Assembly: GCA_963707025.1 (NCBI GenBank)
Contig: CAVPOM010000017.1
Location: forward strand, 128,001-192,000
Reading direction: 5' to 3'
DNA from: an uncultured Verrucomicrobiae bacterium
GTDB taxonomy: Bacteria > Verrucomicrobiota > Verrucomicrobiia > Limisphaerales > Palsa-1400
DNA length: 64,000 nucleotides
Every line of letters starts with the position of its first letter. Position 1 is the stretch's first letter. The notes below the pieces were generated by a model, which was not told the DNA's origin, did not search any database, and saw only the letters and a list, made by a program, of their open reading frames with translations. Of the stretch, positions 43,754-56,079 are shown one piece after another. The translations under genes were made by a program, and so were the position numbers.

Positions 43754-44149
43754 TTACGCGACGGCAATCTTGCGCGGTTTGGCCGCCTCCGCTTTGGGCA
43801 GCGTCAGGGTCAGGATGCCTTGCTCCATCCGGGCGCTGATCTTCTCCGCCTCAATGACAGGGTCCAGTTCGAAGACGCGGCGGAAATCAGCGGCGCTGGA
43901 TTCACGGTAGGACAACCCGGTCTCCGGCAGGGCTGGCGCCGCACGCCGGCCTTGCACGGTCAAAACGGTCCCTTCCACAAGGACGCTTACGCCGTCTTTG
44001 TTGACGCCGGGCAATTCCGCCTCCAGGACGTAACCTTCCTGGGTCTCGTAGATGTTGACCACCGGACGGATGTACTCGCGTTCGGCTGCGACGGCGGCCG
44101 GCTGGGCCGGGGCCGCCTGCTCCGTATTATTGCTGACAATTGTGTTCAT
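43754..44149 (-). CDS. Hsp20/alpha-crystallin small heat-shock protein
   Basis: PVVNIYET, AELPGV, FRRVFEL, GILTLTLPK. Confidence 0.93.
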   Translation of the reverse strand: MNTIVSNNTEQAAPAQPAAVAAEREYIRPVVNIYETQEGYVLEAELPGVNKDGVSVLVEGTVLTVQGRRAAPALPETGLSYRESSAADFRRVFELDPVIEAEKISARMEQGILTLTLPKAEAAKPRKIAVA

Positions 44150-44226
44150 AAGTAAATGTTTCCTTTTTGTTGATTGGGCCGGGACGGGATTTTCCGCCGC
44201 CACCGGCGCGATTCATTGAACCGGGA

Positions 44227-44712
44227 TTAATTGAATTCGATTTTGATTTGTTTCGGCTTGGCCTCTTCCGCCTTCGCCAGTTGAATGGTCAGGACGCCAT
44301 CGCTATAGGCGGCCTTGATCGTCTTGGTGTCCACCTGGCAAGGCAGGCTGATGCTGCGCTGGAAGCGGCCGAACCATCTCTCGGAACGGGACACGCCGCC
44401 TTGCTTCTCATCGCGGCCGCCCTTGCGTTCGCCGGACAGGGTGAGGACGCCATCTTGCAGCGAGATGTCAATGTCCTCCTTTTTCATGCCGGGAAGCTCG
44501 GCCTTGACCGTGACAGCCTCTTTGTTGTCATGGATATCCACCGCCGGGAGCCATCCGCCGGAGAACTGTGTTTCAAGCCTGGCGTCCAAAGGCGAGTCGA
44601 AGACGCTGTCCAACGATTGGAGCAGTTGGCTCAAGTCGTTTGGCAGAGTGTAACCCCGGCCCCACGGAGCCAGGCCATATCCTTCAGGTCGTTGCCATCT
44701 GGTAAGTGTCAT
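44227..44712 (-). CDS. Hsp20/alpha-crystallin small heat-shock protein
   Basis: WLPAVDI, AELPGM, ERWFGRFQRSISLP, YSDGVLTI. Confidence 0.95.
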   Translation of the reverse strand: MTLTRWQRPEGYGLAPWGRGYTLPNDLSQLLQSLDSVFDSPLDARLETQFSGGWLPAVDIHDNKEAVTVKAELPGMKKEDIDISLQDGVLTLSGERKGGRDEKQGGVSRSERWFGRFQRSISLPCQVDTKTIKAAYSDGVLTIQLAKAEEAKPKQIKIEFN

Positions 44713-44784
44713 AAAAATCAATCCTTTCTGTTTCTATCGCTTTCAGTTTCAAACTTAATCATGTTTTCCACTGAGTCCTTATAT

Positions 44785-44950: not shown

Positions 44951-45085
44951 GGCGGTTTAAGAAATTGTGTAGCTCTAAATGAGGGTGGTAGGGCGCGCAC
45001 TCCGTGCGCGCCGCGGCGGGTCCCGATAATTCGGGACCGGGACCCTGCCTTGTAATGCGGCTACAGTATTTGTGAAACCGCTCTA
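44951..45085 (+). repeat. ~135-bp REP-containing MITE-like element, copy 1
   Basis: Ends GGCGGTTTAAGAAAT / ATTTGTGAAACCGCT; internal GTAG-type REP GGTAGGGCGCGCACTCCGTGCGCGCC and hairpin GGTCCCGA-taat-TCGGGACC; close copy at 55893-56026. Confidence 0.88.
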
Positions 45086-45096
45086 ACCAGTATCTT

Positions 45097-45785: not shown

Positions 45786-47368
45786 ATGAGCCAAGGCGTT
45801 GACAAGCGGTTTTCGGCGGGCAAATCGAAACTCATCCTGGGTGTGCTCGTCTGCGGTCTGATCGGCGCGGCGTTGGCCTTCCGCATCCCCGGCGCGGGCG
45901 GGGCTGGCGTCAGCACTACCTTCAAGCTGCGCGAGGTTTCCGCTTTTGGCGTGGACAAGGACCACTTCCTCCGGGGACAACTCTGCCGCTGCCAGGACAA
46001 GCCATTCGCGGAGGTGAAGAATTATCCCGACTTCGCCTCCAAGGCGCCCATCTTCGGGTCGGTTCGGTTTGGCGCGAAAGCGGACCAGACCAACTCCGGC
46101 TGGCTGTATTATTTTGCCGTGGATGAAAGCCGCGGCACCGGCAAAGGCTATGACCGCCTTTATTTTGACAGCAACCAGGACTTGGACTTGCGCAATGATC
46201 CGGTGGCCAAACTCCAGCAGCATTCGCCCGATCATGCTAATGCCGTGAACTTCGGCGGCACCAAGGCGAACGTGGCCTTCGATTTTCTGAAGGTCAACCT
46301 GGCCGGCAGCGACGGCGCCTCCAACCTGGTGGAACTCATGCCGCGCCTCCTCGTCACGGCGAGCGACACGCAAACCTACTGCTACCTGTTTTTCGTGCGC
46401 ACCCGCCTTTTTGAAGGCGACATCCGCATAGGCGGCGAAAAGTTTCACGCCCAGCTCGGCAATGATTATGCCATAACACCCGGCTTCGATTCCCCCTCGA
46501 CCGCCCTGGTTCTGAGCCAGGGGCGCAATACCATTGATTGGTGGGGCGGGGACCGGCAATCGGCTATTCACAAGGTGGACGGCCACTTCTACCGCCTTTC
46601 CGCCACCCCGGCCGGCGAGTTGACCGTGCATCCTTATGAGGGAGAGTTGGGAACCTTTGAAGTGGGAGCAGGCGCCCGAAAACTGACCAATTTCAGCCTG
46701 TCCGGTTCTTTGCGCGCCAAGGATTGGGCCGTGCCGGTGGGCGGCGACATCCAAGACGGCCGGCCTGTCGAGGCCAAGCGTTGCCAGATTCCGGTGGGCG
46801 ATTACCTGCCGGAGTATCTCTCCCTGCAATTCGGCCGGCTGCAAATAAATGTTTCGCAAAACTACCATTCGGAAGGCAAACGGCAGAGCCGGGAAGGCCG
46901 GGCGGACGTTTTCGGAATGGCCGTCCGCAAGGACCAGCCGTTCGTGCTGGATTTCTCCAACAAACCCGACGTGATGTTCGCTTCCCCCGCCCCGGGTCAG
47001 CGGATCAAAGCGGGCGACACCCTCATGGTCATGGCCGTGCTGGTGGACCCGAAACTGGACATCATGATCCGCGGACTGGACGACACTTCGCGCAAGCAGA
47101 CCAAGGATGCCGAGGGCAAGCCCCTGGGCTATGAACGGACCCTGCCGCTGGATCCCACCGTGATCATCACCGGGCCGGCGGCGAGAAAGTGGCTGAGGGC
47201 GTCATGCCCTTTGGGTGAGACGGCACCTGCGGGTATTCATGGCGAGTGCCAAAAGATCTCAAACTGGACGGCCGGGCGGAAACTTTCAACATCCAGGTGT
47301 TTTACGACACGCTGGAACTTTACGGCAAGGTCAGCGCCAGCCGCCCCGTCACGGTCTATCGCGAATGA
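45786..47368 (+). CDS. Putative exported selenoprotein C (MPFG-U-DGTC); Sec at 47216-47218; 1-nt frameshift ~47171
   Basis: N-terminal TM; YDRLYFDSNQDLDL shared with paralogs; restoring one C gives EKVAEGVMPFG-TGA-DGTCGYSWRVP plus an open tail (49 aa after TGA) to the stop at 47366-47368. Confidence 0.8.
47232..47250 (+). promoter_or_regulatory. SECIS-like hairpin 1
   Basis: GGTATTC-ATGGC-GAGTGCC, loop at +21 after TGA. Confidence 0.8.
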
Positions 47369-47442
47369 ACGGGGCGCCGGGCCGCGGATCAACCAAACTT
47401 GTCGTCCGCTGGCACAAAAATTCAATGAAAGAAAGAATCCTT

Positions 47443-48234
47443 ATGATCCCAAAGTTCCATAAAGCAAACCGCGGCTTTGCCGTGGCGGCCTTCTTGCTGG
47501 CGGGCCTCGGACTGGTGACGCTGACGGACGCGCAAACCGGCGCCAATCCCGACACCACGGCCCCCGCGCAGGCAGATGGTCCGCCGCGCATTCTCGCCAC
47601 CTCGCCCAAGAGCGGCGTCAACAATGTGGATCCGGCTCTGAAGGAGATCACCATCACCTTTGACCGCGACATGGAAGGCGGCATGTCCTGGACCGGAGGC
47701 GGGCCGGCCTTTCCCAAATCGCCGGAGGGGGCGAAGGCCCGTTGGCGCGACAAGCGCACCTGCGTTTTGCCCGTGACGCTCCAAACCGGCCATGACTACC
47801 GCGTCGGCATCAATTCACCCAGCTTTCAGAATTTTCGGAGCGCCGCCAGCGTGCCGGCCGCGCCCACCGCCATTGTCTTCAGGACCAGCGGCCCGAAGGT
47901 CGAAAGCAAAGCGCCTGAGATTGTCAGCCTCAACCCGGCCAATGGCGCGAGCGATGTCAGCCCGGCGCTGACCGAGTTGCGGGTCACCTTCAACATGGCC
48001 ATGGGGAATGGATGTTCCTGGACGGGCGGCGGTCCCAGGTATCCCGTTATTCCTGCCGGGAAGAAAGCTTCTTGGAGCAAGGACCACAAAACTTGTGTAT
48101 TGCCGGTGGAGCTGAAACCAGGCTCGTCGTATCAATTGGGCCTCAATAGCCTGTCGTACAAAGGCTTTCAGAGCGAAGACGGCGTTCCGTTGAAACCGGT
48201 GACCTACACCTTCAAAACGAGCGATGCGCCGTGA
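47443..48234 (+). CDS. Exported protein with two bacterial Ig-like (Big_5-type) domains
   Basis: Signal peptide; two repeats P.I...P..G...V.PAL.E...TF...M..G.SWTGGGP..TCVLPV.L. Confidence 0.82.
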   Translation: MIPKFHKANRGFAVAAFLLAGLGLVTLTDAQTGANPDTTAPAQADGPPRILATSPKSGVNNVDPALKEITITFDRDMEGGMSWTGGGPAFPKSPEGAKARWRDKRTCVLPVTLQTGHDYRVGINSPSFQNFRSAASVPAAPTAIVFRTSGPKVESKAPEIVSLNPANGASDVSPALTELRVTFNMAMGNGCSWTGGGPRYPVIPAGKKASWSKDHKTCVLPVELKPGSSYQLGLNSLSYKGFQSEDGVPLKPVTYTFKTSDAP

Positions 48235-48271
48235 CTGTTCCGTAACGCGCTGATGCTTCCCGGGCTGCTGA

Positions 48272-50038
48272 ATGGTTGCCATCAATGTTATGAAACCTGA
48301 TCGGGCCGCCAGAACCTCCCTGATCATTCCTCGATGTTTCCAAGCAGCCGCTGCCGGAAACACCGGGGTTCTGCTGGCGTCTTTGATTTTGTTTCTCTCC
48401 GCTTGCCCGCCAGCCAAGGCCCGCGAAAGTCCACCTGCCGCCGGGGCCGCGGTTGGCGCCGCAGTTGACTTGTTGCAACGCTATCCGACCAAGTTGGCGG
48501 CGGGCGATACCAACCCGAATCAAGCCCGGTCATGGGAATTCACGGACGGCGACATCTTTCGGGTGACACAGTTTCGTCTGGCGGCGGGCAAGGAATTGCG
48601 GGTGGAGACAGGGCCCGCTGACCTGGGCATCGGCCACTGCGCGGATGGCGCCGTCTGGGCGGTGCTCATCCCGCGAGCCGGCGGAACACTGACCAGTCAA
48701 GAGAGCAACCAGGAAGCCATCGCCCATGTGTGGCTTCGGTTTCACCCGAAGGAGATCAGACACCTGTTCCCGCCGGAGACGGTGTTCGCCGGCGGAGCTG
48801 TCAACTTGTCAGCCCAGATGCGCCTCATTGCCAATGCCAAGATGACTTCAAGCTGGCAGGCCGGAGGCAGGGCCATGATTCCGGAGCCAAAGGACATGAC
48901 CGTGGATGTGGATGCCAAGAATGGCTGGCGTCGGTTCTTCGCGGTGGATCAGCAGTCCCAAACGGCAGAATACGTTGACGCCTTCGCCAACCGGTCCGTC
49001 AAGCTCCCGCCGCCTCTGACGCAAGGCGCAGCCCAGGCGGCTTTTGATCAACTCTGGGAGGCATTCGATCGCGACTACGCCATGTTCGTGCTCCGCCCGG
49101 AAGTGGATTGGGCAAAGTTGCGCGAGCAGTATCGTCCGCCGGCGCTCGCCAGCAAATCCGCCTATGAGTTGGCCGGCGTCTGCGCGGACATGCTGGCCAA
49201 GCTCCGCGACCTGCACATCTGGCTGACGGTCGCCGGCGCGCCAGTCCCGGTGTTTAACCGGCCCCGGTCAGCCAATGCCAATCCGCGAGCCTGCCAGGCC
49301 CTTCTCGGCGGTTTCAAACAGGAAGGACGGGTGGCTTGGGCCGTCACGACCAACCACATCGGCTTCATCGCCATCTTCGGCTGGGACGATCCGAAGATTC
49401 CGGCGCAGTGCGGCGAAGCCCTGGAACAAATGCGCGCTACCCGCGGGCTGATTGTGGATGTGCGCCTGAACGGCGGTGGTGGCGAACCATTGGCCGCACG
49501 ATTCGCGGGCCGTTTTCTGGAGAAGGAGTTCGTCTATGCCTTTAGCCAGTTTCGGAACGGCCCAAGCCACACGAACCTGACGGACAAGTCCCAACGCGCC
49601 ATCGCGCCGCGCGGGCCGTGGCGCTACGACCGTCCCGTCCTGTTGCTCATCGGCCAGAAGTGCATGAGCAGCGATGAATCCTTCGTCGGCATGATGACGG
49701 GCGACCCGCAGGTCACGACCATGGGCGATCACACTTGCGGCTCCAGCGGCAACCCCGAAATCGTCCGCCTGCCACTGGACATGACGGTGAGCGTGCCGCA
49801 GTGGATTGATTACCTGCCGGACGGCACGCCGCTGGATGAGCGCGGGTTCCAACCGCAGATTCCGTTTCAGCCGGCGCCCGGCGCGTTTGAAGGCGGTCGG
49901 GACGACCTGCTCGCCGCCGCGCTGGCGCGTCTGAGTCAGGCGCCTTTGCCCGGCAAACAGATTGAAGGACCCGTGTTTGAACCCGCGACTTCCGACCTGC
50001 CGGATCATAGCCAGGGCGTGGAGGAAGAAGCCAAGTGA
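48272..50038 (+). CDS. S41 family peptidase with Tricorn-C1-like domain, possible lipoprotein
   Basis: FDQLWEAFDRDYAMF..VDW, LRDLH, IVDVRLNGGG, CMSSDESF, TCGSSGNP; LSAC lipobox-like. Confidence 0.9.
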   Translation: MVAINVMKPDRAARTSLIIPRCFQAAAAGNTGVLLASLILFLSACPPAKARESPPAAGAAVGAAVDLLQRYPTKLAAGDTNPNQARSWEFTDGDIFRVTQFRLAAGKELRVETGPADLGIGHCADGAVWAVLIPRAGGTLTSQESNQEAIAHVWLRFHPKEIRHLFPPETVFAGGAVNLSAQMRLIANAKMTSSWQAGGRAMIPEPKDMTVDVDAKNGWRRFFAVDQQSQTAEYVDAFANRSVKLPPPLTQGAAQAAFDQLWEAFDRDYAMFVLRPEVDWAKLREQYRPPALASKSAYELAGVCADMLAKLRDLHIWLTVAGAPVPVFNRPRSANANPRACQALLGGFKQEGRVAWAVTTNHIGFIAIFGWDDPKIPAQCGEALEQMRATRGLIVDVRLNGGGGEPLAARFAGRFLEKEFVYAFSQFRNGPSHTNLTDKSQRAIAPRGPWRYDRPVLLLIGQKCMSSDESFVGMMTGDPQVTTMGDHTCGSSGNPEIVRLPLDMTVSVPQWIDYLPDGTPLDERGFQPQIPFQPAPGAFEGGRDDLLAAALARLSQAPLPGKQIEGPVFEPATSDLPDHSQGVEEEAK

Positions 50039-50085
50039 ACGTGCGGTGCGGCAAAAAAGCCCCCCAAGTCACCGCCAGCAGCGCG

Positions 50086-50973
50086 TTAAATTGATGACTT
50101 GTTCGTATCGCTCGGCGGCGTGTTTTGCGGCAGGGCGAAGCACGGCTCCAGGGCGCCGCAGGTGGCGCATTCCAGGCAGCGGATGCAGCCGGAGACGTTG
50201 ACGGCCTGGTCCACTTTCACGCCCATCGAGCAGCGGCTGCGGCAGAGGTTGCATTCGACGCACTGCTGAGGATTGAACCGGAGATGAAACAGGCTGAATC
50301 GGTTGAAGAGCGCGAGCAGTCCGCCGAGCGGACAAAACATCCGGCACCACGGCCGGTGAATGAAAAGCGCGACGGCAAGGAATGAAAGCAAAAGCCCGGT
50401 CTTAAAACCGCTCATGATCCACCCGTGGCCGGCCAGCAGGCTTTGCACCGAGTAAGGCACGCCCGCTTCCAGCGCGCCCGCCGGACAAAGCCGGCAGATG
50501 GACACCACCTGCTTCTCAAACGGAATGCCTTTGTAACCCAAAATCAGCGGCAAAAGAATCACCAGCCCGCCCAGAACCACGTAACGGATGCTGCCGGTCC
50601 AGGACGGCAGGTTGATTTTCCGAGTTGTGATTTTGCCAAGCAAGTCCTGGAGAAAACCGAACGGACAAGCCCAGCCGCAGACGATGGAACCGCCCACCGC
50701 GCCAACCAGCAGCAGCACGCCGATCAACAAATACGGCGCTTCCCCAACCACCGGCAGCAGCGCCGCGTAGTTCGCCATCACCCCTATCGGGCAGGCGAAA
50801 GCCGACAGCGGGCACGAGTAGCAGTGGAACACGCAGCCGGGAATGCCATGCAGCCATTGGCCCGCCGGCGCCAGCCACACCCCCAGAAAACCGGTTTGCA
50901 CCCAGGGACGGACGCGGGCAAGCATCCGCCCTCGAGCGGCGGCCTGGGGCAATGCTGGTGGCTGATGGCTCAT
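50086..50973 (-). CDS. Membrane 4Fe-4S binding protein (NapH/YccM-like polyferredoxin)
   Basis: CYSCPLSAFACPIG, CGWACPFG, CRLCPAG, CRMFCPLG, CVECNLCRSRC, CIRCLEC. Confidence 0.92.
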   Translation of the reverse strand: MSHQPPALPQAAARGRMLARVRPWVQTGFLGVWLAPAGQWLHGIPGCVFHCYSCPLSAFACPIGVMANYAALLPVVGEAPYLLIGVLLLVGAVGGSIVCGWACPFGFLQDLLGKITTRKINLPSWTGSIRYVVLGGLVILLPLILGYKGIPFEKQVVSICRLCPAGALEAGVPYSVQSLLAGHGWIMSGFKTGLLLSFLAVALFIHRPWCRMFCPLGGLLALFNRFSLFHLRFNPQQCVECNLCRSRCSMGVKVDQAVNVSGCIRCLECATCGALEPCFALPQNTPPSDTNKSSI

Positions 50974-50983
50974 GGATTAAGAG

Positions 50984-51011
50984 GGCTGAAGGCTGAAGGC
51001 TAAAGGCTGAA
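50984..51011. repeat. 7-bp array (GGCTRAA) x4, left arm
   Basis: ggctgaa ggctgaa ggctaaa ggctgaa. Confidence 0.92.
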
Positions 51012-51043
51012 ACATGGGGGTTGTGGGAAAAATCTTCATGAAT

Positions 51044-51412
51044 TTAGCTTTTTGCGCAGCCTTTGGCCGTTTTATCAACGCTTGTGAAAATTGCGATGAG
51101 TTGGCGCGTTTCCTCGAGCAAGCCGGCCATCCGGGCTTGCGTGACACAACCGCCTTCCACCAGCAGTCCGAGCCAATACTCGGTTTCTTCGATTTCCTTG
51201 AGACAGTCTCCAACCTTGGAAATAAACTCGGCTTTCGACCGTCCGCGCGAAGCCTCGCGATAATTCGCCCCGACCGAAGTTCCCGAACGAAGCACCTGCT
51301 TGCCCAGCACTTGCGCAACCGTGCTGGACTTGGGCAACTTGGAATACAAATGAATGATCCGAAGCGCGAACGCCTTCGTTCTCGGTTTCAAATCTTGCGG
51401 CTCATCACTCAT
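51044..51412 (-). CDS. Four-helix-bundle protein (23S rRNA IVP-like family)
   Basis: DLKPRTKAFALRII, QVLRSGTSVGANYREA, SKAEFISK, EIEETEYWL. Confidence 0.93.
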   Translation of the reverse strand: MSDEPQDLKPRTKAFALRIIHLYSKLPKSSTVAQVLGKQVLRSGTSVGANYREASRGRSKAEFISKVGDCLKEIEETEYWLGLLVEGGCVTQARMAGLLEETRQLIAIFTSVDKTAKGCAKS

Positions 51413-51469
51413 AATGCAAACGACAGATTTCACATTCAAATTCAAACTTATCTCAAAAACGCAGCCGAT

Positions 51470-51511
51470 TTTAGCCTTCAACCTTTAGCCTTCAGCCTTT
51501 AGCCTTTAGCC
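51470..51511. repeat. 7-bp array (TTYAGCC) x6, right arm, inverted relative to 50984-51011
   Basis: tttagcc ttcaacc tttagcc ttcagcc tttagcc tttagcc. Confidence 0.92.
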
Positions 51512-51519
51512 TTTCTAAT

Positions 51520-51538
51520 CGGCCACGCCATGCGGCCG
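51520..51538 (-). promoter_or_regulatory. SECIS-like hairpin 4 (in 3' UTR)
   Basis: Minus strand CGGCCGC-ATGGC-GTGGCCG, loop at +21 after the TGA at 51552-51554. Confidence 0.85.
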
Positions 51539-51542
51539 GGGT

Positions 51543-51917
51543 TTATTTCATTCAAGTGGGACAGGGTGTTTTTGCGCTCGTGTTTACGCGGATTTTCCAC
51601 GCCGGCGGCCGGTAATTGGCCTGTTGTTTGGCCCAGCGGTCCAGCGCCTCGCCCGGATTGGCCACGTTATCCAATTTGGGCGGCGGTGGCGGCGCAACCT
51701 GGTCCGGGTATTGCAGGCCGCTGGAGGAGAAGGCCGTGACCAACTGCGTTTCCCACGCGGTGTTGCCGTCCACCGTGTCCACCTTGGTCAGATGCCGCGC
51801 GCCGCAAAAAACCACCACCGCGCCGGTCAGCGCCACGACGAATCCGCCCCAGAAATCGTGGCCTTCCCGCGCGCGCAACGCGCGGTTGACCGGTGGCTGT
51901 GGGACTCGTTTGAACAT
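51543..51917 (-). CDS. Putative small membrane selenoprotein with C-terminal CxxU (KTPCPT-U-MK); Sec at 51552-51554
   Basis: ATG 25 nt after the tRNA-Sec 3' end; one TM (FWGGFVVALTGAVVVFCGA); TGT CCC ACT TGA ATG AAA TAA then SECIS. Confidence 0.82.
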
Positions 51918-51941
51918 GCTAAAGGGGTGGAGGGGGCAAAT

Positions 51942-52038
51942 TGGCGGAGGTGGATGGGAATCGAACCCACCTGGGACTTTGTTGAGCCCCACACTGGTTT
52001 TGAAGACCAGGAGCGCCACCAGGCCGCCCCACACCTCC
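51942..52038 (-). tRNA. selC: tRNA-Sec (anticodon TCA)
   Basis: GGAGGTG/CACCTCC-G-CCA acceptor, CTGGT-CTTCAAA-ACCAG anticodon arm, long variable arm TGGGGCT..AGTCCCA, GTGGG-TTCGATT-CCCAT T arm; 97 nt. Confidence 0.97.
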
Positions 52039-52352
52039 GCACCGGGTCGCTGCGCCGCCGGCCGATGGCAGGCGTGATTTATTTCCGGTGGGCTTCCTCA
52101 TACACCTATTGTGACAGGTTTGGCCGATACTTCAATGCGAATAAATTACATCGGCCAATCAACGTCTGTCATCCTGCCGCCCAAGCCCGCCACAATCAGG
52201 CCAAACACCAAAAGTATGTATCCGACAGTCGCCATCCCTTCGTAAATTAAACCATGCCGATCAACATGCTGCTCGTGAAACTCAACCCGGCCGCTAGCGC
52301 GATCACTTCGCCAGTTTTTTGATCTCCGCCTCCAGTTCGTCGAGGGCAAAAT

Positions 52353-53621
52353 CTAAGTTCTTGGTTTGAGCATCAGCGGACTGGTCTCCACCTGGAACGG
52401 GCTGACAATTTTGACGCTGCCAGTCAACGGACGCTGCGTATTTTTGGGCTCCCGCCATGAGAGCGAACAAACGCCGCCTCATCCAAACTCGAAAGTGCTG
52501 GAAAAAACCAGGGTTCCAGTGGTGCTGGCCAGCACCAGTTTTGGCCCCTGCGGGCGCTGCCCGCCGCGCAGCATTTCTATGGATTCCTCCTGCCGGCCCA
52601 CAAATTGGAGACTAAAGTTGATCTGGCGGTCGGCCCCCTCCGCCGCCTTGAGCACGGCTTGCACCGGCTCGCCGATTTTGAGCAAGGCGGTCTTGTCGGC
52701 GGCGACCTGGAAGCCGGCGGTTTTTGGAAAACCAGAGCCGGACAGCGTCCAGGCCGCCCCTTTTTCATCCTTGCGGTTGATCGTCCAGCGGACGACCCGG
52801 TAATGGCCGGCCGGCAAGGTGACTTCGCCGTTGACCGGTTTGCGCACGAAATGGCCGTTCTCACCGAAAACGACCAGTTCGGAAATGTTTTCCGGCACGC
52901 GCACCTGGCCGAGCGTGACGTCCTCCGCCTTTTGCACCTTGACAAACGCGCCGTCGCGGGCCACTTCGATCCGGTAAAGCTTGCCGTTGACTTCCAGCAT
53001 CCGGCCCAAGAAATGTTCGCTGGTCTGGTCGCCCTCGATCTGGACTCGGTCGCTGTCATAGGCATCGGCGCCGACGTCGTTGAACGTGCCATTGACGTTG
53101 CCGTCAATCAGTTGGAGGCGCTTTTTCACGCCGTCGAAGTTCACCATCCCTTCATACCAGCCGGCGGAGGAGGCCAGCAATTCCGCGGGGCCGGTTGCGG
53201 ATTCATAAAGCCGGAACTCCAGATGATAGGTGATCGGCCCGTCCCCGCCCTTGAAAACCAGGCGGGCCGGCGGAAATTCGGCGTTGGGATTGGCCCGCGC
53301 TTGGAGAGGCGTTTTGTCGTCCAGCCGGCCATTGCCGTTGCTGTCAATGAAGAGCCGGTCATACGGCCCGCCCTTGCGCGAGCGGTCCAGGCAAACCCAG
53401 CGCCCGCCGCTGGGATCCATCGGCGTCACCCAGCGCGCGAAATAGGGCGCGGCGTTCAGCTTGGGCAGGGCGACGCCGGGCGGCGGATTGGTGGTCAGGT
53501 CCAATTGGTGGTAGGCCTGGCCCTGCGCCCCGGTGTGGTATTGCAGCCTTTGCTCCGTTTGCGCCCAGGCGCTGCCGGCCAGAACCATTCCGGCCAGAAT
53601 CAATTGTTTGGAAAATTTCAT
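52353..53621 (-). CDS. Putative exported selenoprotein B (FEFG-U-GGVC); Sec at 52479-52481
   Basis: Signal peptide (SAWA|Q); YDRLFIDSNGNGRL; ORF-track stop TGA is followed in frame by GGVCSLSWREP.. (41 aa) to TAG at 52353-52355. Confidence 0.85.
52448..52464 (-). promoter_or_regulatory. SECIS-like hairpin 2
   Basis: Minus strand GCTCTC-ATGGC-GGGAGC, loop at +21. Confidence 0.8.
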
Positions 53622-53652
53622 AAGGTCGCGGTTGATTTTTTCTTCCTCAAAT

Positions 53653-55779
53653 TCAAGTTTTCAGACTGGCCTCCAGCAATGGCGCCCTCACCGGCGGCAA
53701 CTCCGGCTTCACGTGCAGCAGCGATTTGAGCCGTTCGCGGTAAAATGGACTGGCCGACGACAGGATCAAGAACGGCAGCAGCACCGCGAAATGGAAGGCC
53801 GCCACCAGGAGAACGGGAGCAAACAATACGCTCCAGTCAATCCGCCCGCTTGAGCCTATCATCTCTATTAAAAAGAAAGGCAAGCCGATCAGCACCCAGA
53901 GAACGGCCGGCAGGACGAGCAGCCAGATATAAAGTCCGAGCGGACGGTAACGACCGCGGCAAATCAGGCCGGCAAGACTCAGCGCCACCGAACTGACCAG
54001 AACGCACAGGGCCAGCGCCACGGCGACTGGAAACGCTTCGTCCGTGGAACTCCAGTCTTGCCGCGCGACAAAGGCCAGCCCGCTGAAACCCGTCAAGACG
54101 GACAGGATGCACAGAAAAGTGACGAACCGATGTTGCCGCCGCAGATAATTTGACAGAAGCCAGACTGCGGCCAGACCAACCGCCAGCGCGGCGATGACAT
54201 CCAGGAAAAAATTCGTTCCCGGTGGCAGGATGTCCGGCGGCGCCAGGGTCAGCGCGATCAGGCATCCGAGCGGCAGCCAGATCAACCACGCGGCGCCACA
54301 ACGATTGGGTTTGAAGGCGAGCAACCCCAGGATGGCCAGCCACGGCAGCAACAGCGGCGCAAAACCGGGCAGCACCCAGTCGTAGGCGACCTGCGGCCCT
54401 TCCTTCGCGCCCAGCGCACCGAGGTCCGACGAAGCCACAATGGCCAGTTTGCCGCCGGCGGTGAGAGGCACTCGCCACGAGTGCGAACAGGTCCCGCCTC
54501 AGCCAAACTCAAAATCGCCCGTCGCAATTTTCTTTTCCCCGCAGTAAATCGCGAAGGCCGGCGGCTTGGAGCGGTCTTGCGCCGCCATTTGGTAAGATTC
54601 GCGGCCCGCGCCCACCAGGAGATAATCCAGCCGCAAATCCTGCCCGTGGCGGCTGGCGCTGACGGTATTGGTCAACGGCCCGCCCACGTTCAACACCAGC
54701 GGGGTCTTGCCGTCCACCGCCATTTGCCCGAGGCTCTGCGTCTGGTTGGCACTGCGGAAGGCCGCGGCCCCGTTTTTTTCGAGCTGGATCTCAAGCTGGT
54801 TGTAGCTGCCGGTCGGAATTTTGACCAGGCCTGCCGGCTGATCGAGCATCACCAGATACGGCCCGCCGCTCAGAACCAGGCGGCCGATCAATTGGCCGGT
54901 GATTTTCACTTCGCCCAGCGCGACGGATTGCTCGGTGAATTGGAGCGTCGGCCTGGCTTCGCCGTTTTCCGAACCTGCGGTCCACTCCAGTTGATAGGCG
55001 TGGCCATCCACGAAAACTTTCCGCGAAGGGGGAACAGGAACACTGGCGAGCAAACCGTCGCCCGCGTTGAACGCCTGGGCTCGCTTTTCCCAGGGGCGCA
55101 GCAGCAACCGGCTGTTCTGCAACAAGCCCGACGGGCCCCAGATATTTTGCACGATGCCCACCTGCCAGTCCCGCCCTTGCAAGGTCATTTTGCCTTGCCA
55201 GAACGAGCGCACCGCCGCGGAACAGACAAGTTGCGAAGGCGGACCATAGTCATAGAAGTTGAGGTCCGCCAGCACCCGCCACCTGCCGGCAGGGGTGTTG
55301 AAAAGCAGGTGGACGTTCGTGAAGCCCTGATAATTTGCCGGCCCCGTCGCGCCGGCCAAAAACACGCCGGAGGGATCGTCGGTCAAATCCTGGTTGCGAT
55401 TGAGGTCCAGGTAAAGTTTGCGCGCGTCGCGCTGCCAGAGAAAGGCAATGGCATTGCCCGCATCGCCCGCGAAATTCAAAGCGCCGCGAGCGATTTTGCC
55501 CGAAAGCGCCGCCGGCTCCTTTTTGAAAGGCATGGATTGCGTCCCCAGGCCAACGCCCCAGTTGTTGACGCTATAGGCTGTTTCCTGATATTCCAGCGAA
55601 GCCACCGTCGCGTTTGAGGAGGGGGAACCGGCCGGCGCGCCCTCCGCCGCGAGAAGAACAGCTCCCGGCCAAAATACCGCCATCAGCGTCCACGTCAGCC
55701 GGGCCACCCGGACGTTTCCAAGGCACCGCCAAGATAAACCATCAGTCCTTTGCTTTGCCATTAGACATTTCATTAGCAC
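53653..55779 (-). CDS. Putative selenoprotein A: exported domain + FEFG-U-GGTC + multi-TM C-terminal domain; Sec at 54499-54501
   Basis: ORFs 54499-55779 and 53653-54471 are in the same frame, separated only by TGA-GGTCSHSWR; KLYLDLNRNQDL shared with paralogs; exact start uncertain. Confidence 0.85.
54468..54484 (-). promoter_or_regulatory. SECIS-like hairpin 3
   Basis: Minus strand GCACTC-GTGGC-GAGTGC, loop at +21. Confidence 0.8.
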
Positions 55780-55892: not shown

Positions 55893-56026
55893 GGCGGTTT
55901 AAGAAATTGTGCAGCCCTAAACGAGGGTGGTAGGGCGCGCACTCCGTGCGCGCCGCGGCGGGTCCCGATAATTCGGGACCCGCCCTTGCCGTGCAATGCG
56001 GCTGCAGTATTTGTGAAACGGCTCCA
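55893..56026 (+). repeat. ~135-bp REP-containing MITE-like element, copy 2 (direct orientation)
   Basis: Closely matches 44951-45085, including an identical central REP and hairpin. Confidence 0.88.
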
Positions 56027-56079
56027 GCCGGAAGCGGATGCGGTCAATGGGTGCCCCTCCAGCCATACGGTTCATCAAC

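Follow-up and report, generated by a model that had tools for sequence, protein, structure and literature searches.

Do the TGA codons that interrupt three related genes of an uncultured Verrucomicrobiae bacterium end the encoded proteins, or are they translated as selenocysteine (Sec, U), and what would a selenol at these sites do? The genes lie between positions 45786 and 55779 of a 64,000-nucleotide stretch of contig CAVPOM010000017.1 (GenBank assembly GCA_963707025.1), hereafter the window, to which coordinates refer unless another contig is named. An earlier model-made reading of the letters, here called the original prediction, had proposed three paralogs sharing a motif around an in-frame TGA, recoding rather than nonsense mutation, and a redox or metal site on a non-thioredoxin, probably immunoglobulin (Ig)-like fold. 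By our comparative analysis, the three genes very probably belong to a large family of exported bacterial selenoproteins, as yet uncatalogued, in which UGA is read as Sec. Recoding, as originally proposed, is strongly supported because the TGA is conserved, a hairpin behind it covaries in the manner of a selenocysteine insertion sequence (SECIS), a tRNA-Sec lies next door and selA, selB and selD are present in the genome.

All three motif sequences with their in-frame TGA were present as predicted and conform to [FY]G-U-[GDS]G-x-C-x-x-SWR-x-P, the motif common to the family. Gene 2 (52353..53621, reverse strand) would encode a secreted 422-amino-acid all-beta selenoprotein with Sec at residue 381 (U381; TGA at 52479..52481, reverse strand) and a cysteine at residue 385 (C385), and the protein would begin with a signal peptide, contain two DxNxNG loops and end in an Ig-like Sec domain (residues 318-422). 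Gene 3 (53653..55779, reverse strand) would yield a 708-amino-acid selenoprotein with U427 (TGA at 54499..54501, reverse strand), in which an exported all-beta part is followed by the Sec domain and then by a polytopic membrane domain of ~280 residues. Gene 1 (45786..47368, forward strand) would specify an exported all-beta protein with Sec near its C-terminus (TGA at 47216..47218, forward strand), the C-terminal part reading GGEKVAEGVMPFG-U-DGTCGYSWRVP...VYRE-stop when TGA is taken as U. The proteins are as divergent as had been supposed: genes 2 and 3, the best pair, aligned by BLASTP at 30% identity over 164 amino acids (E 1e-10), and the values for gene 2 against gene 1 and for gene 3 against gene 1 were E 0.003 and E 0.02. 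The shared N-terminal motif is likewise real, a DxNxNGxLD-type signature in which D93, G96, L100 and D102 hardly vary among 62 sequences. The three genes are indeed related, but the family is not confined to them, as five members occur in this genome. A genome-wide search for the motif turned up 13 matches, of which these 5 all carry TGA and the other 8 are chance matches without surrounding open reading frames (ORFs). The two additional members, one with a short C-terminus and one of the membrane-anchored type, lie on contig C11 at 93291-93947 (forward) and 55254-55523 (reverse), both with TGA.

A feature absent from the original prediction is that the body and the motif of gene 1 stand in different frames in the assembly, a base being missing behind position 47170. 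The same-genus ortholog (locus L025) has a single frame and reads VIITRAGGEKVAEGVMPFG*DGTCGYSWRVP, and an extra G behind 47170 is present in 8/8 covering contigs from the public runs X1 (2 contigs), X2 (3), X3 (2) and X8 (1). As these runs shared at most 9% of words with the window, we draw no habitat or expression claim from them. We read the break in gene 1 as a probable indel of the assembly, because all 8 related contigs carry the extra base and selA and selD are also split between two frames; the reading relies on comparison with related contigs.

The TGA itself is conserved far beyond this genome. We scanned one genome per species with a pattern lying downstream of the codon, which found 335 relatives, and 80 loci were kept; among the 113 motif copies in these loci, the codon at the U position is TGA in 112 and TGT in 1. 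The exceptional TGT (Cys) copy, at locus L071 (genome G441, contig C290), adjoins a partner gene that keeps its TGA, and this organism therefore still uses Sec. In metagenomes, scanned with a pattern that had NNN at the codon position, at least 120 stretches matched and TGA stood in 120/120 among the matches listed. In related genomes (28 matches listed for 41 genomes), every one of the 25 matches reaching across the motif contains exactly one TGA, at identities as low as 38%; the remaining 3 of the 28 stop short of the motif. Even samples of 401 genomes from each of two phyla gave 25 matches in 14 genomes of Verrucomicrobiota, all with TGA, and 67 matches in 28 genomes of Planctomycetota, 60 of them with TGA and with up to 8 copies per genome. 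Conservation also runs past the codon: in genes of the gene-2 type, frame and protein sequence are kept for 37-43 codons beyond the TGA to a common stop, and in those of the gene-3 type for the ~280 codons of the membrane domain.

Behind each TGA lies a 17-nt hairpin within the coding sequence, starting 15 nt after the UGA. With the UGA numbered as nt 1-3, nt 18-23 pair with nt 29-34 to give a 6-bp stem around the loop N-U-G-G-C; the stem is encoded by the codons of x-[L/H/Y]-S and R-[E/V]-P and the loop by the Trp codon. The putative bacterial SECIS (bSECIS) reads GUAUUC-AUGGC-GAGUGC in gene 1 (47233..47249, forward strand; two G.U pairs, over the G-Y-S-W-R-V-P codons), GCUCUC-AUGGC-GGGAGC in gene 2 (52448..52464, reverse strand) and GCACUCG-UGG-CGAGUGC in gene 3 (54468..54484, reverse strand). 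In the 113 copies, the codons at positions x67 and x71 are always reverse complements, with no exception: CTC/GAG in 80 (Leu-Glu), TAC/GTA in 17 (Tyr-Val) and CAC/GTG in 16 (His-Val). Across 101 sequences, 99.8% of cells are paired and 53 cells are changed on both sides, a level reached by 0/500 shuffles, and partners slid out of register pair in 24-67%. Loop positions G26 and G27 are invariant, so that both the compensatory changes and the apical G of a bacterial selenoprotein stem-loop are found, and synonymous sites across the hairpin stretch are nearly frozen in both phyla. The SWR-x-P part of the motif is thus real and common to the family, as had been noted, but it appears to be conserved largely as an RNA signal rather than as a protein motif. 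Only its Trp and Pro persist widely as protein features among homologs, and the Cys forms examined at the DNA level no longer have SWR, reading CSYAGKMP and CEYTGKMP instead. Because its codons form the stem and loop of the SECIS, SWR-x-P should not be read as an active-site motif. The locus illustrates plainly how an RNA structure can dictate which amino acids change together (L-E, H-V, Y-V), and it warns against reading conserved motifs beside Sec codons as active sites.

The UGA would be decoded by the organism's own SelA, SelB, SelD and tRNA-Sec, directed by the 17-nt hairpin. The tRNA-Sec gene (selC, anticodon UCA; 51942..52038, reverse strand) was identified by ARAGORN and matches Rfam RF01852 (72.9 bits, E 1.1e-13); it lies between the family genes, on the strand of gene 2 and 315 nt downstream of it. 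Elsewhere a tRNA-Sec falls within 3 kb of the family in 3/60 other loci. SelA, the SelB wing domain and SelD are encoded together on contig C12 (65140-69322), with selB between selA and selD, so that selA, selB, selC and selD all occur in the same genome. Two observations weigh against recoding. The stability of the three hairpins is unremarkable for G+C-rich sequence (z-scores against shuffles of -0.36, +0.43 and +0.09), and the case for a SECIS therefore rests on covariation and position. Further, selA and selD each match their own family in two adjacent frames in the assembly, and real breaks in these genes would preclude Sec synthesis; we read them as likely assembly indels like that of gene 1. 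Together with the gap in gene 1, the two breaks suggest an indel-prone assembly (18 contigs, 88% complete). A reassignment of TGA to Trp or Gly was considered and rejected: TGA is the commonest stop codon of the genome, found at the end of 1860 of the 3317 open frames that are 400 codons or longer, and gene 3 itself stops at a TGA, as do thrS and the S41 peptidase gene.

The family is large and occurs in soil and peat Verrucomicrobiota and Planctomycetota, and gene callers have regularly cut its members short. A database search with gene 2 gave 744 hits, and the best 120 of these are 362-396 amino acids long and cover 85-90% of the query, which means that they end at the TGA; none of these 120 bears a functional name, those that are named being called "hypothetical protein". 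The truncated database proteins that the original prediction had proposed to look for do exist, in that 41 representative clusters terminate exactly at the Gly preceding the TGA. Searches of Pfam at E <=1 gave nothing for genes 1 and 2 and one chance-level membrane match for gene 3, and NCBIfam release 20.0 at the same threshold gave nothing for the three proteins beyond a chance CrcB match; no known family in either collection could be assigned to the gene 3 membrane domain. To our knowledge, bacterial selenoproteins have been found almost only through likeness to known families, and one for which Pfam and NCBIfam have no model goes unseen for that reason. A model of the family would put right the annotation of hundreds of genomes from soil, peat and sediment, and would add to the selenium demand known for two abundant phyla. 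Neither the motif nor the fold is found among the 119 prokaryotic selenoprotein families in Table 1 of a 2026 review (PMC13188914). The candidate family from the Planctomycetota-Verrucomicrobiota-Chlamydiota (PVC) group in Table S9 of a paper on Porphyra planctomycetes (PMC4807772) is a different one (ASPIC/UnbV, FG-GAP). We found no description of the family in the literature searched, which included passages of that paper and of the deep-Sep paper, the supplements of the review and of the deep-Sep paper lying outside its scope. The motifs that come nearest in the review's table are those of TsoA (LULAxC, NF045695), protein DG (GUxG, NF049953) and DUF1573 (UGC); there was no match to TsoA or protein DG, models whose presence in NCBIfam 20.0 we assumed.

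With 62 sequences as input, AlphaFold gave a confident, all-beta model of gene 2 (pLDDT 91.1, pTM 0.84), whose residues 318-422 superpose by VIA-align on FN3, S-layer and alpha2-macroglobulin MG1 domains with Z 9.4-9.6. The best matches are 8qy5_C (Z 9.6, rmsd 2.5, 92 aligned residues) and 7ptp_A (Z 9.6), and MG1 of Escherichia coli alpha2-macroglobulin (4zjg_A) follows with Z 9.5 at 15% identity. These models indicate that the Sec domain is an Ig/FN3/macroglobulin-like beta-sandwich, a likeness of fold and not evidence of common descent, and support the non-thioredoxin, Ig-like fold that had been proposed; the all-beta model is not that of a thioredoxin-fold oxidoreductase. Searches of solved structures by sequence found nothing for the gene 2 profile and hydrophobic chance matches only for gene 3. 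Foldseek with the full gene 2 model returned only uninformative low-TM matches to multi-domain adhesins, integrins and macroglobulins, and with the Sec domain alone nothing below E 0.04. The full model places U381 between strands 371-376 and 385-390, within the loop F-E-F-G-U-G-G-V, and C385 opens the second strand. In a model of the domain alone (pLDDT 87.7) the loop tightens to a hairpin that carries U at the tip, C lying farther along the strand. The family has the spacing U-x3-C, not the two-residue spacing of U and C in thioredoxin folds. Export of the family proteins is by prediction: in most of 59 orthologs a signal peptide precedes a conserved EQWL-YHT start. The DxNxNG-type loops at residues 93-102 and 173-182 are nearly invariant and, as we read them, resemble calcium-binding loops.

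Homologs without Sec show what the domain tolerates. A profile of the 102-residue Sec domain, searched against 1.84 billion representatives, gave 106 hits, from which 10 repeat or low-complexity hits were set aside before counting (P0129, P0140, P0141, P0146, P0160, P0186, P0196, P0198, P0224 and P0228). Of the rest, 41 end at the TGA, P0182 aligns upstream of the motif only, and the site is covered by 54 proteins with 56 domains. In place of U, C stands in 12 of these domains, G in 9, L in 7, S in 6, R and P in 4 each, W in 3, T, Q, E and A in 2 each, and M, K and F in 1 each; in 41/56 the residue (C, G, L, S, R or W) could arise from TGA by a single base change, although gene callers that apply other genetic codes could have produced some of the G or W calls in the database proteins. 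The partner Cys is present in 44/56 domains, including all 12 of the Cys forms. A DNA check of six Planctomycetota cases, with two more domains in one locus, gave TGC, TGC, GAA, TAT, GAT, TCC, GCC and TCG. Homologs with Cys at the Sec position comprise TGT in L071, TGC twice and 12/56 domains, and this family therefore has Sec/Cys pairs like other selenoprotein families. A word-index search with residues 340-422 for close Cys forms gave 5 hits, all truncated. The fold of the Sec domain, judged from these sequences, clearly works also without Sec or Cys, and the distant homologs weaken the idea that the U/C pair is indispensable to its function. Both situations that the original prediction had named as speaking against it, non-Cys residues at the TGA site and a downstream Cys that is not conserved, do occur among distant homologs (44/56 and 12/56 domains), but Sec coding stands, because it rests on independent evidence.

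What the selenol would do is less certain. We consider it plausible, if somewhat short of probable, that it acts in redox chemistry outside the cytoplasm, as the reactive centre of a module, and is recycled by an AhpC/TSA-like partner. Sec would sit in an exposed glycine-rich loop (F-G-U-G-G) between two strands with Cys at +4, and would cycle between selenol and selenenylsulfide, formed with that Cys or with a partner. Recycling in most relatives would fall to the peroxiredoxin/thioredoxin-like domain of the third gene of a cassette comprising a membrane-anchored Sec protein, a soluble Sec protein and a CarboxypepD_reg-repeat protein with an AhpC/TSA-like end. Genes of the gene-3 and gene-2 types form an overlapping or abutting pair that is kept in both phyla, and of 13 ORFs tested downstream of gene-2 orthologs, 11 contain CarboxypepD_reg repeats, 4 of these ending in an AhpC-TSA/thioredoxin-like domain; such an end domain lies within the 3-kb flank in 17/80 loci. 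The Cys-form homologs P0145 and P0147 are fused to Redoxin/AhpC-TSA domains. Several observations weigh against a redox role. The U position holds a residue other than Cys in 44/56 domains, GAA, TAT, GAT and TCC being verified on DNA, and the partner Cys is lost in 12/56; the domain-only model, with U at the tip and C down the strand, does not obviously join the two residues; and the cassette end domain has S-x-x-C, not CxxC. In the present genome gene 2 has no third cassette gene beside it, and the thioredoxin-like domain of the cassette was not found at E 1e-4 in the 88%-complete assembly. The Sec and the nearby Cys might instead bind a soft metal or metalloid (Cu(I), Hg, As, Se) on an Ig-like carrier, in the manner of a periplasmic metallochaperone, with the membrane paralog handing the ligand to or from the soluble one. 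The G-U-G-G-x-C loop is flexible and exposed in the models, a short family subtype stands beside an ArsP_1-type permease at L090, L093, L097 and L098 (L090 only scanned), and several predicted metal-binding selenoproteins appear in Table 1 of PMC13188914. CopC is among the weak fold matches to the Sec domain (E 0.097), but this match is weak and generic, no conserved His/Met/Cys-rich site exists besides U and C, and the loss of the partner Cys in 12/56 domains counts here too. The conserved cassette partner, moreover, is peroxiredoxin/thioredoxin-like and not a metal pump, and we regard metal binding as rather unlikely. Still less likely, in our view, is that the exposed selenol serves as a covalent link, diselenide or selenenylsulfide, between the membrane-anchored and soluble paralogs or another surface component, and not in catalysis. 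An overlapping pair of same-loop paralogs in both phyla, up to 8 copies per genome and a U in a hairpin loop or at its tip, suited to intermolecular contacts, would agree with such a tether, but family members also occur singly, and Cys could serve equally, while Sec is costly.

Two further explanations deny the residue itself a role. The UGA and SECIS could act as a gate coupling full-length synthesis to selenium supply, with the chemistry of the residue dispensable, and the many residues at the U position, 41/56 of them one base change from TGA, would suit this; P0127, P0128, P0133 and P0219 have G, S, L or W there and yet keep the SECIS-coded residues. On the other side, TGA is found in 112/113 and in 120/120 (matches listed) of the hairpin-bearing copies, and its retention wherever the hairpin is retained speaks for selection on Sec itself. 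Moreover, 12/12 Cys forms retain the partner Cys, some of the G and W calls may reflect other genetic codes, and 6 cases are DNA-checked. We know of no selenium-dependent gate of such a kind in bacteria, which we also count against it, and we hold the gate to be very improbable. That the TGA is an ordinary stop, or that the genes are decaying with their downstream part untranslated, is hardly credible. Gene callers do end the proteins at the TGA, gene 1 is frame-broken, and selA and selD stand in two frames, but over 200 copies, drawn from two phyla and from metagenomes, keep frame and protein sequence past the TGA. The conserved downstream stops, the hairpin covariation and the Cys forms fit translation, and the break of gene 1 is absent from 8/8 related contigs. 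Returning to a selenol that is itself used, we would offer one broader and speculative proposal, which we think unlikely to hold as a whole. The family would be among the larger selenoprotein families of the Planctomycetota and Verrucomicrobiota, and its surface selenol in an Ig-like hairpin loop would act between molecules, as an Se-Se or Se-S tether or relay between membrane-anchored and soluble paralogs, unlike the buried nucleophile of thioredoxin folds; such a use would be undescribed in bacteria, and lineages losing Sec would take a sense codon one mutation away. If true, replacement by such codons would point to a second, Sec-independent role of the scaffold.

The genes resemble textbook bacterial selenoproteins of the formate dehydrogenase (fdhF) type, which are decoded through a SelB-binding SECIS hairpin, in their in-frame UGA, in the hairpin within the coding sequence shortly after it with its invariant loop G, in the tRNA-Sec, SelA, SelB and SelD of the genome and in their rare Cys-coding relatives. 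They differ in belonging to another family and fold, in being exported by prediction, and in that the hairpin is coupled to the protein motif so closely that amino acids have to change in concert (L with E; H or Y with V). DUF1573 (PF07610) is a beta-sandwich domain family. It is also listed among the selenoproteins, with the motif UGC, in Table 1 of PMC13188914. Our family would share with it a Sec on an Ig-like beta-sandwich, but the motif here is G-U-G-G-x-C, not U-G-C, and no match to PF07610 was found at E <=1. In animals, SPS1 paralogs reportedly replace the Sec/Cys site by Arg, Gly, Leu or Thr (Mariotti and colleagues are said to have described this in 2015). The likeness to our homologs is that Sec is replaced mostly by residues one base change from TGA and not by Cys; the protein is unrelated, and here the pattern appears in distant bacterial homologs, with 6 cases DNA-checked. 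Periplasmic thioredoxin-fold selenoproteins (DsbA-like, DsbG-like and TlpA/Prx-like, with UxxC or CxxU) are listed in PMC13188914 Table 1. Like them, the present family is predicted to be extracytoplasmic, places Sec near a Cys and has genomic or fusion ties to AhpC/TSA-type domains. Unlike them, it would have an Ig/FN3/MG-like sandwich, U-x3-C and a Sec in a hairpin loop, not at a helix N-terminus, and it lacks any Pfam or NCBIfam match. A Sec on an extracellular Ig-like fold with U-x3-C spacing would widen the range of settings known for Sec.

Besides the tRNA-Sec, the neighbours of the family genes in the window are genes for a 23S-IVP four-helix protein, a Fer4_5 membrane ferredoxin, an S41 peptidase and a Big_5 protein. 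The Fer4_5 membrane polyferredoxin (50086-50973, reverse strand) lies downstream of gene 2 and the tRNA-Sec on their strand; we read it as NapH-like, and it is possible that it supplies electrons to periplasmic partners. The 23S-IVP gene (51044-51481) is flanked by 44-nt inverted repeats (50989-51032 and 51470-51513) made up of short AAGGCT/TTAGCC-type units. Two adjoining HSP20/alpha-crystallin genes occupy 43754-44721 on the reverse strand. A 138-nt direct repeat with two G+C-rich hairpins is present at 44951-45088 and 55893-56029, at 97% and 85% identity in its two parts; it has 89 BLAST hits genome-wide, many of them full-length, and no match in Rfam, as a dispersed intergenic (REP/MITE-like) element. 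Its copies stand upstream of gene 1 and beside gene 3, and we rejected it as a shared regulatory element in view of the 89 genome hits and its opposite sense to the two genes. Finally, the short family subtype (~224 amino acids) at L090, L093, L097 and L098 is followed by a tRNA-Pro(GGG) in L090, L097 and L098, and its flanks hold ArsP_1-type permease, MscS and DUF481 genes, assigned by Pfam on the ORFs of L090 and by ORF size and position in the others.

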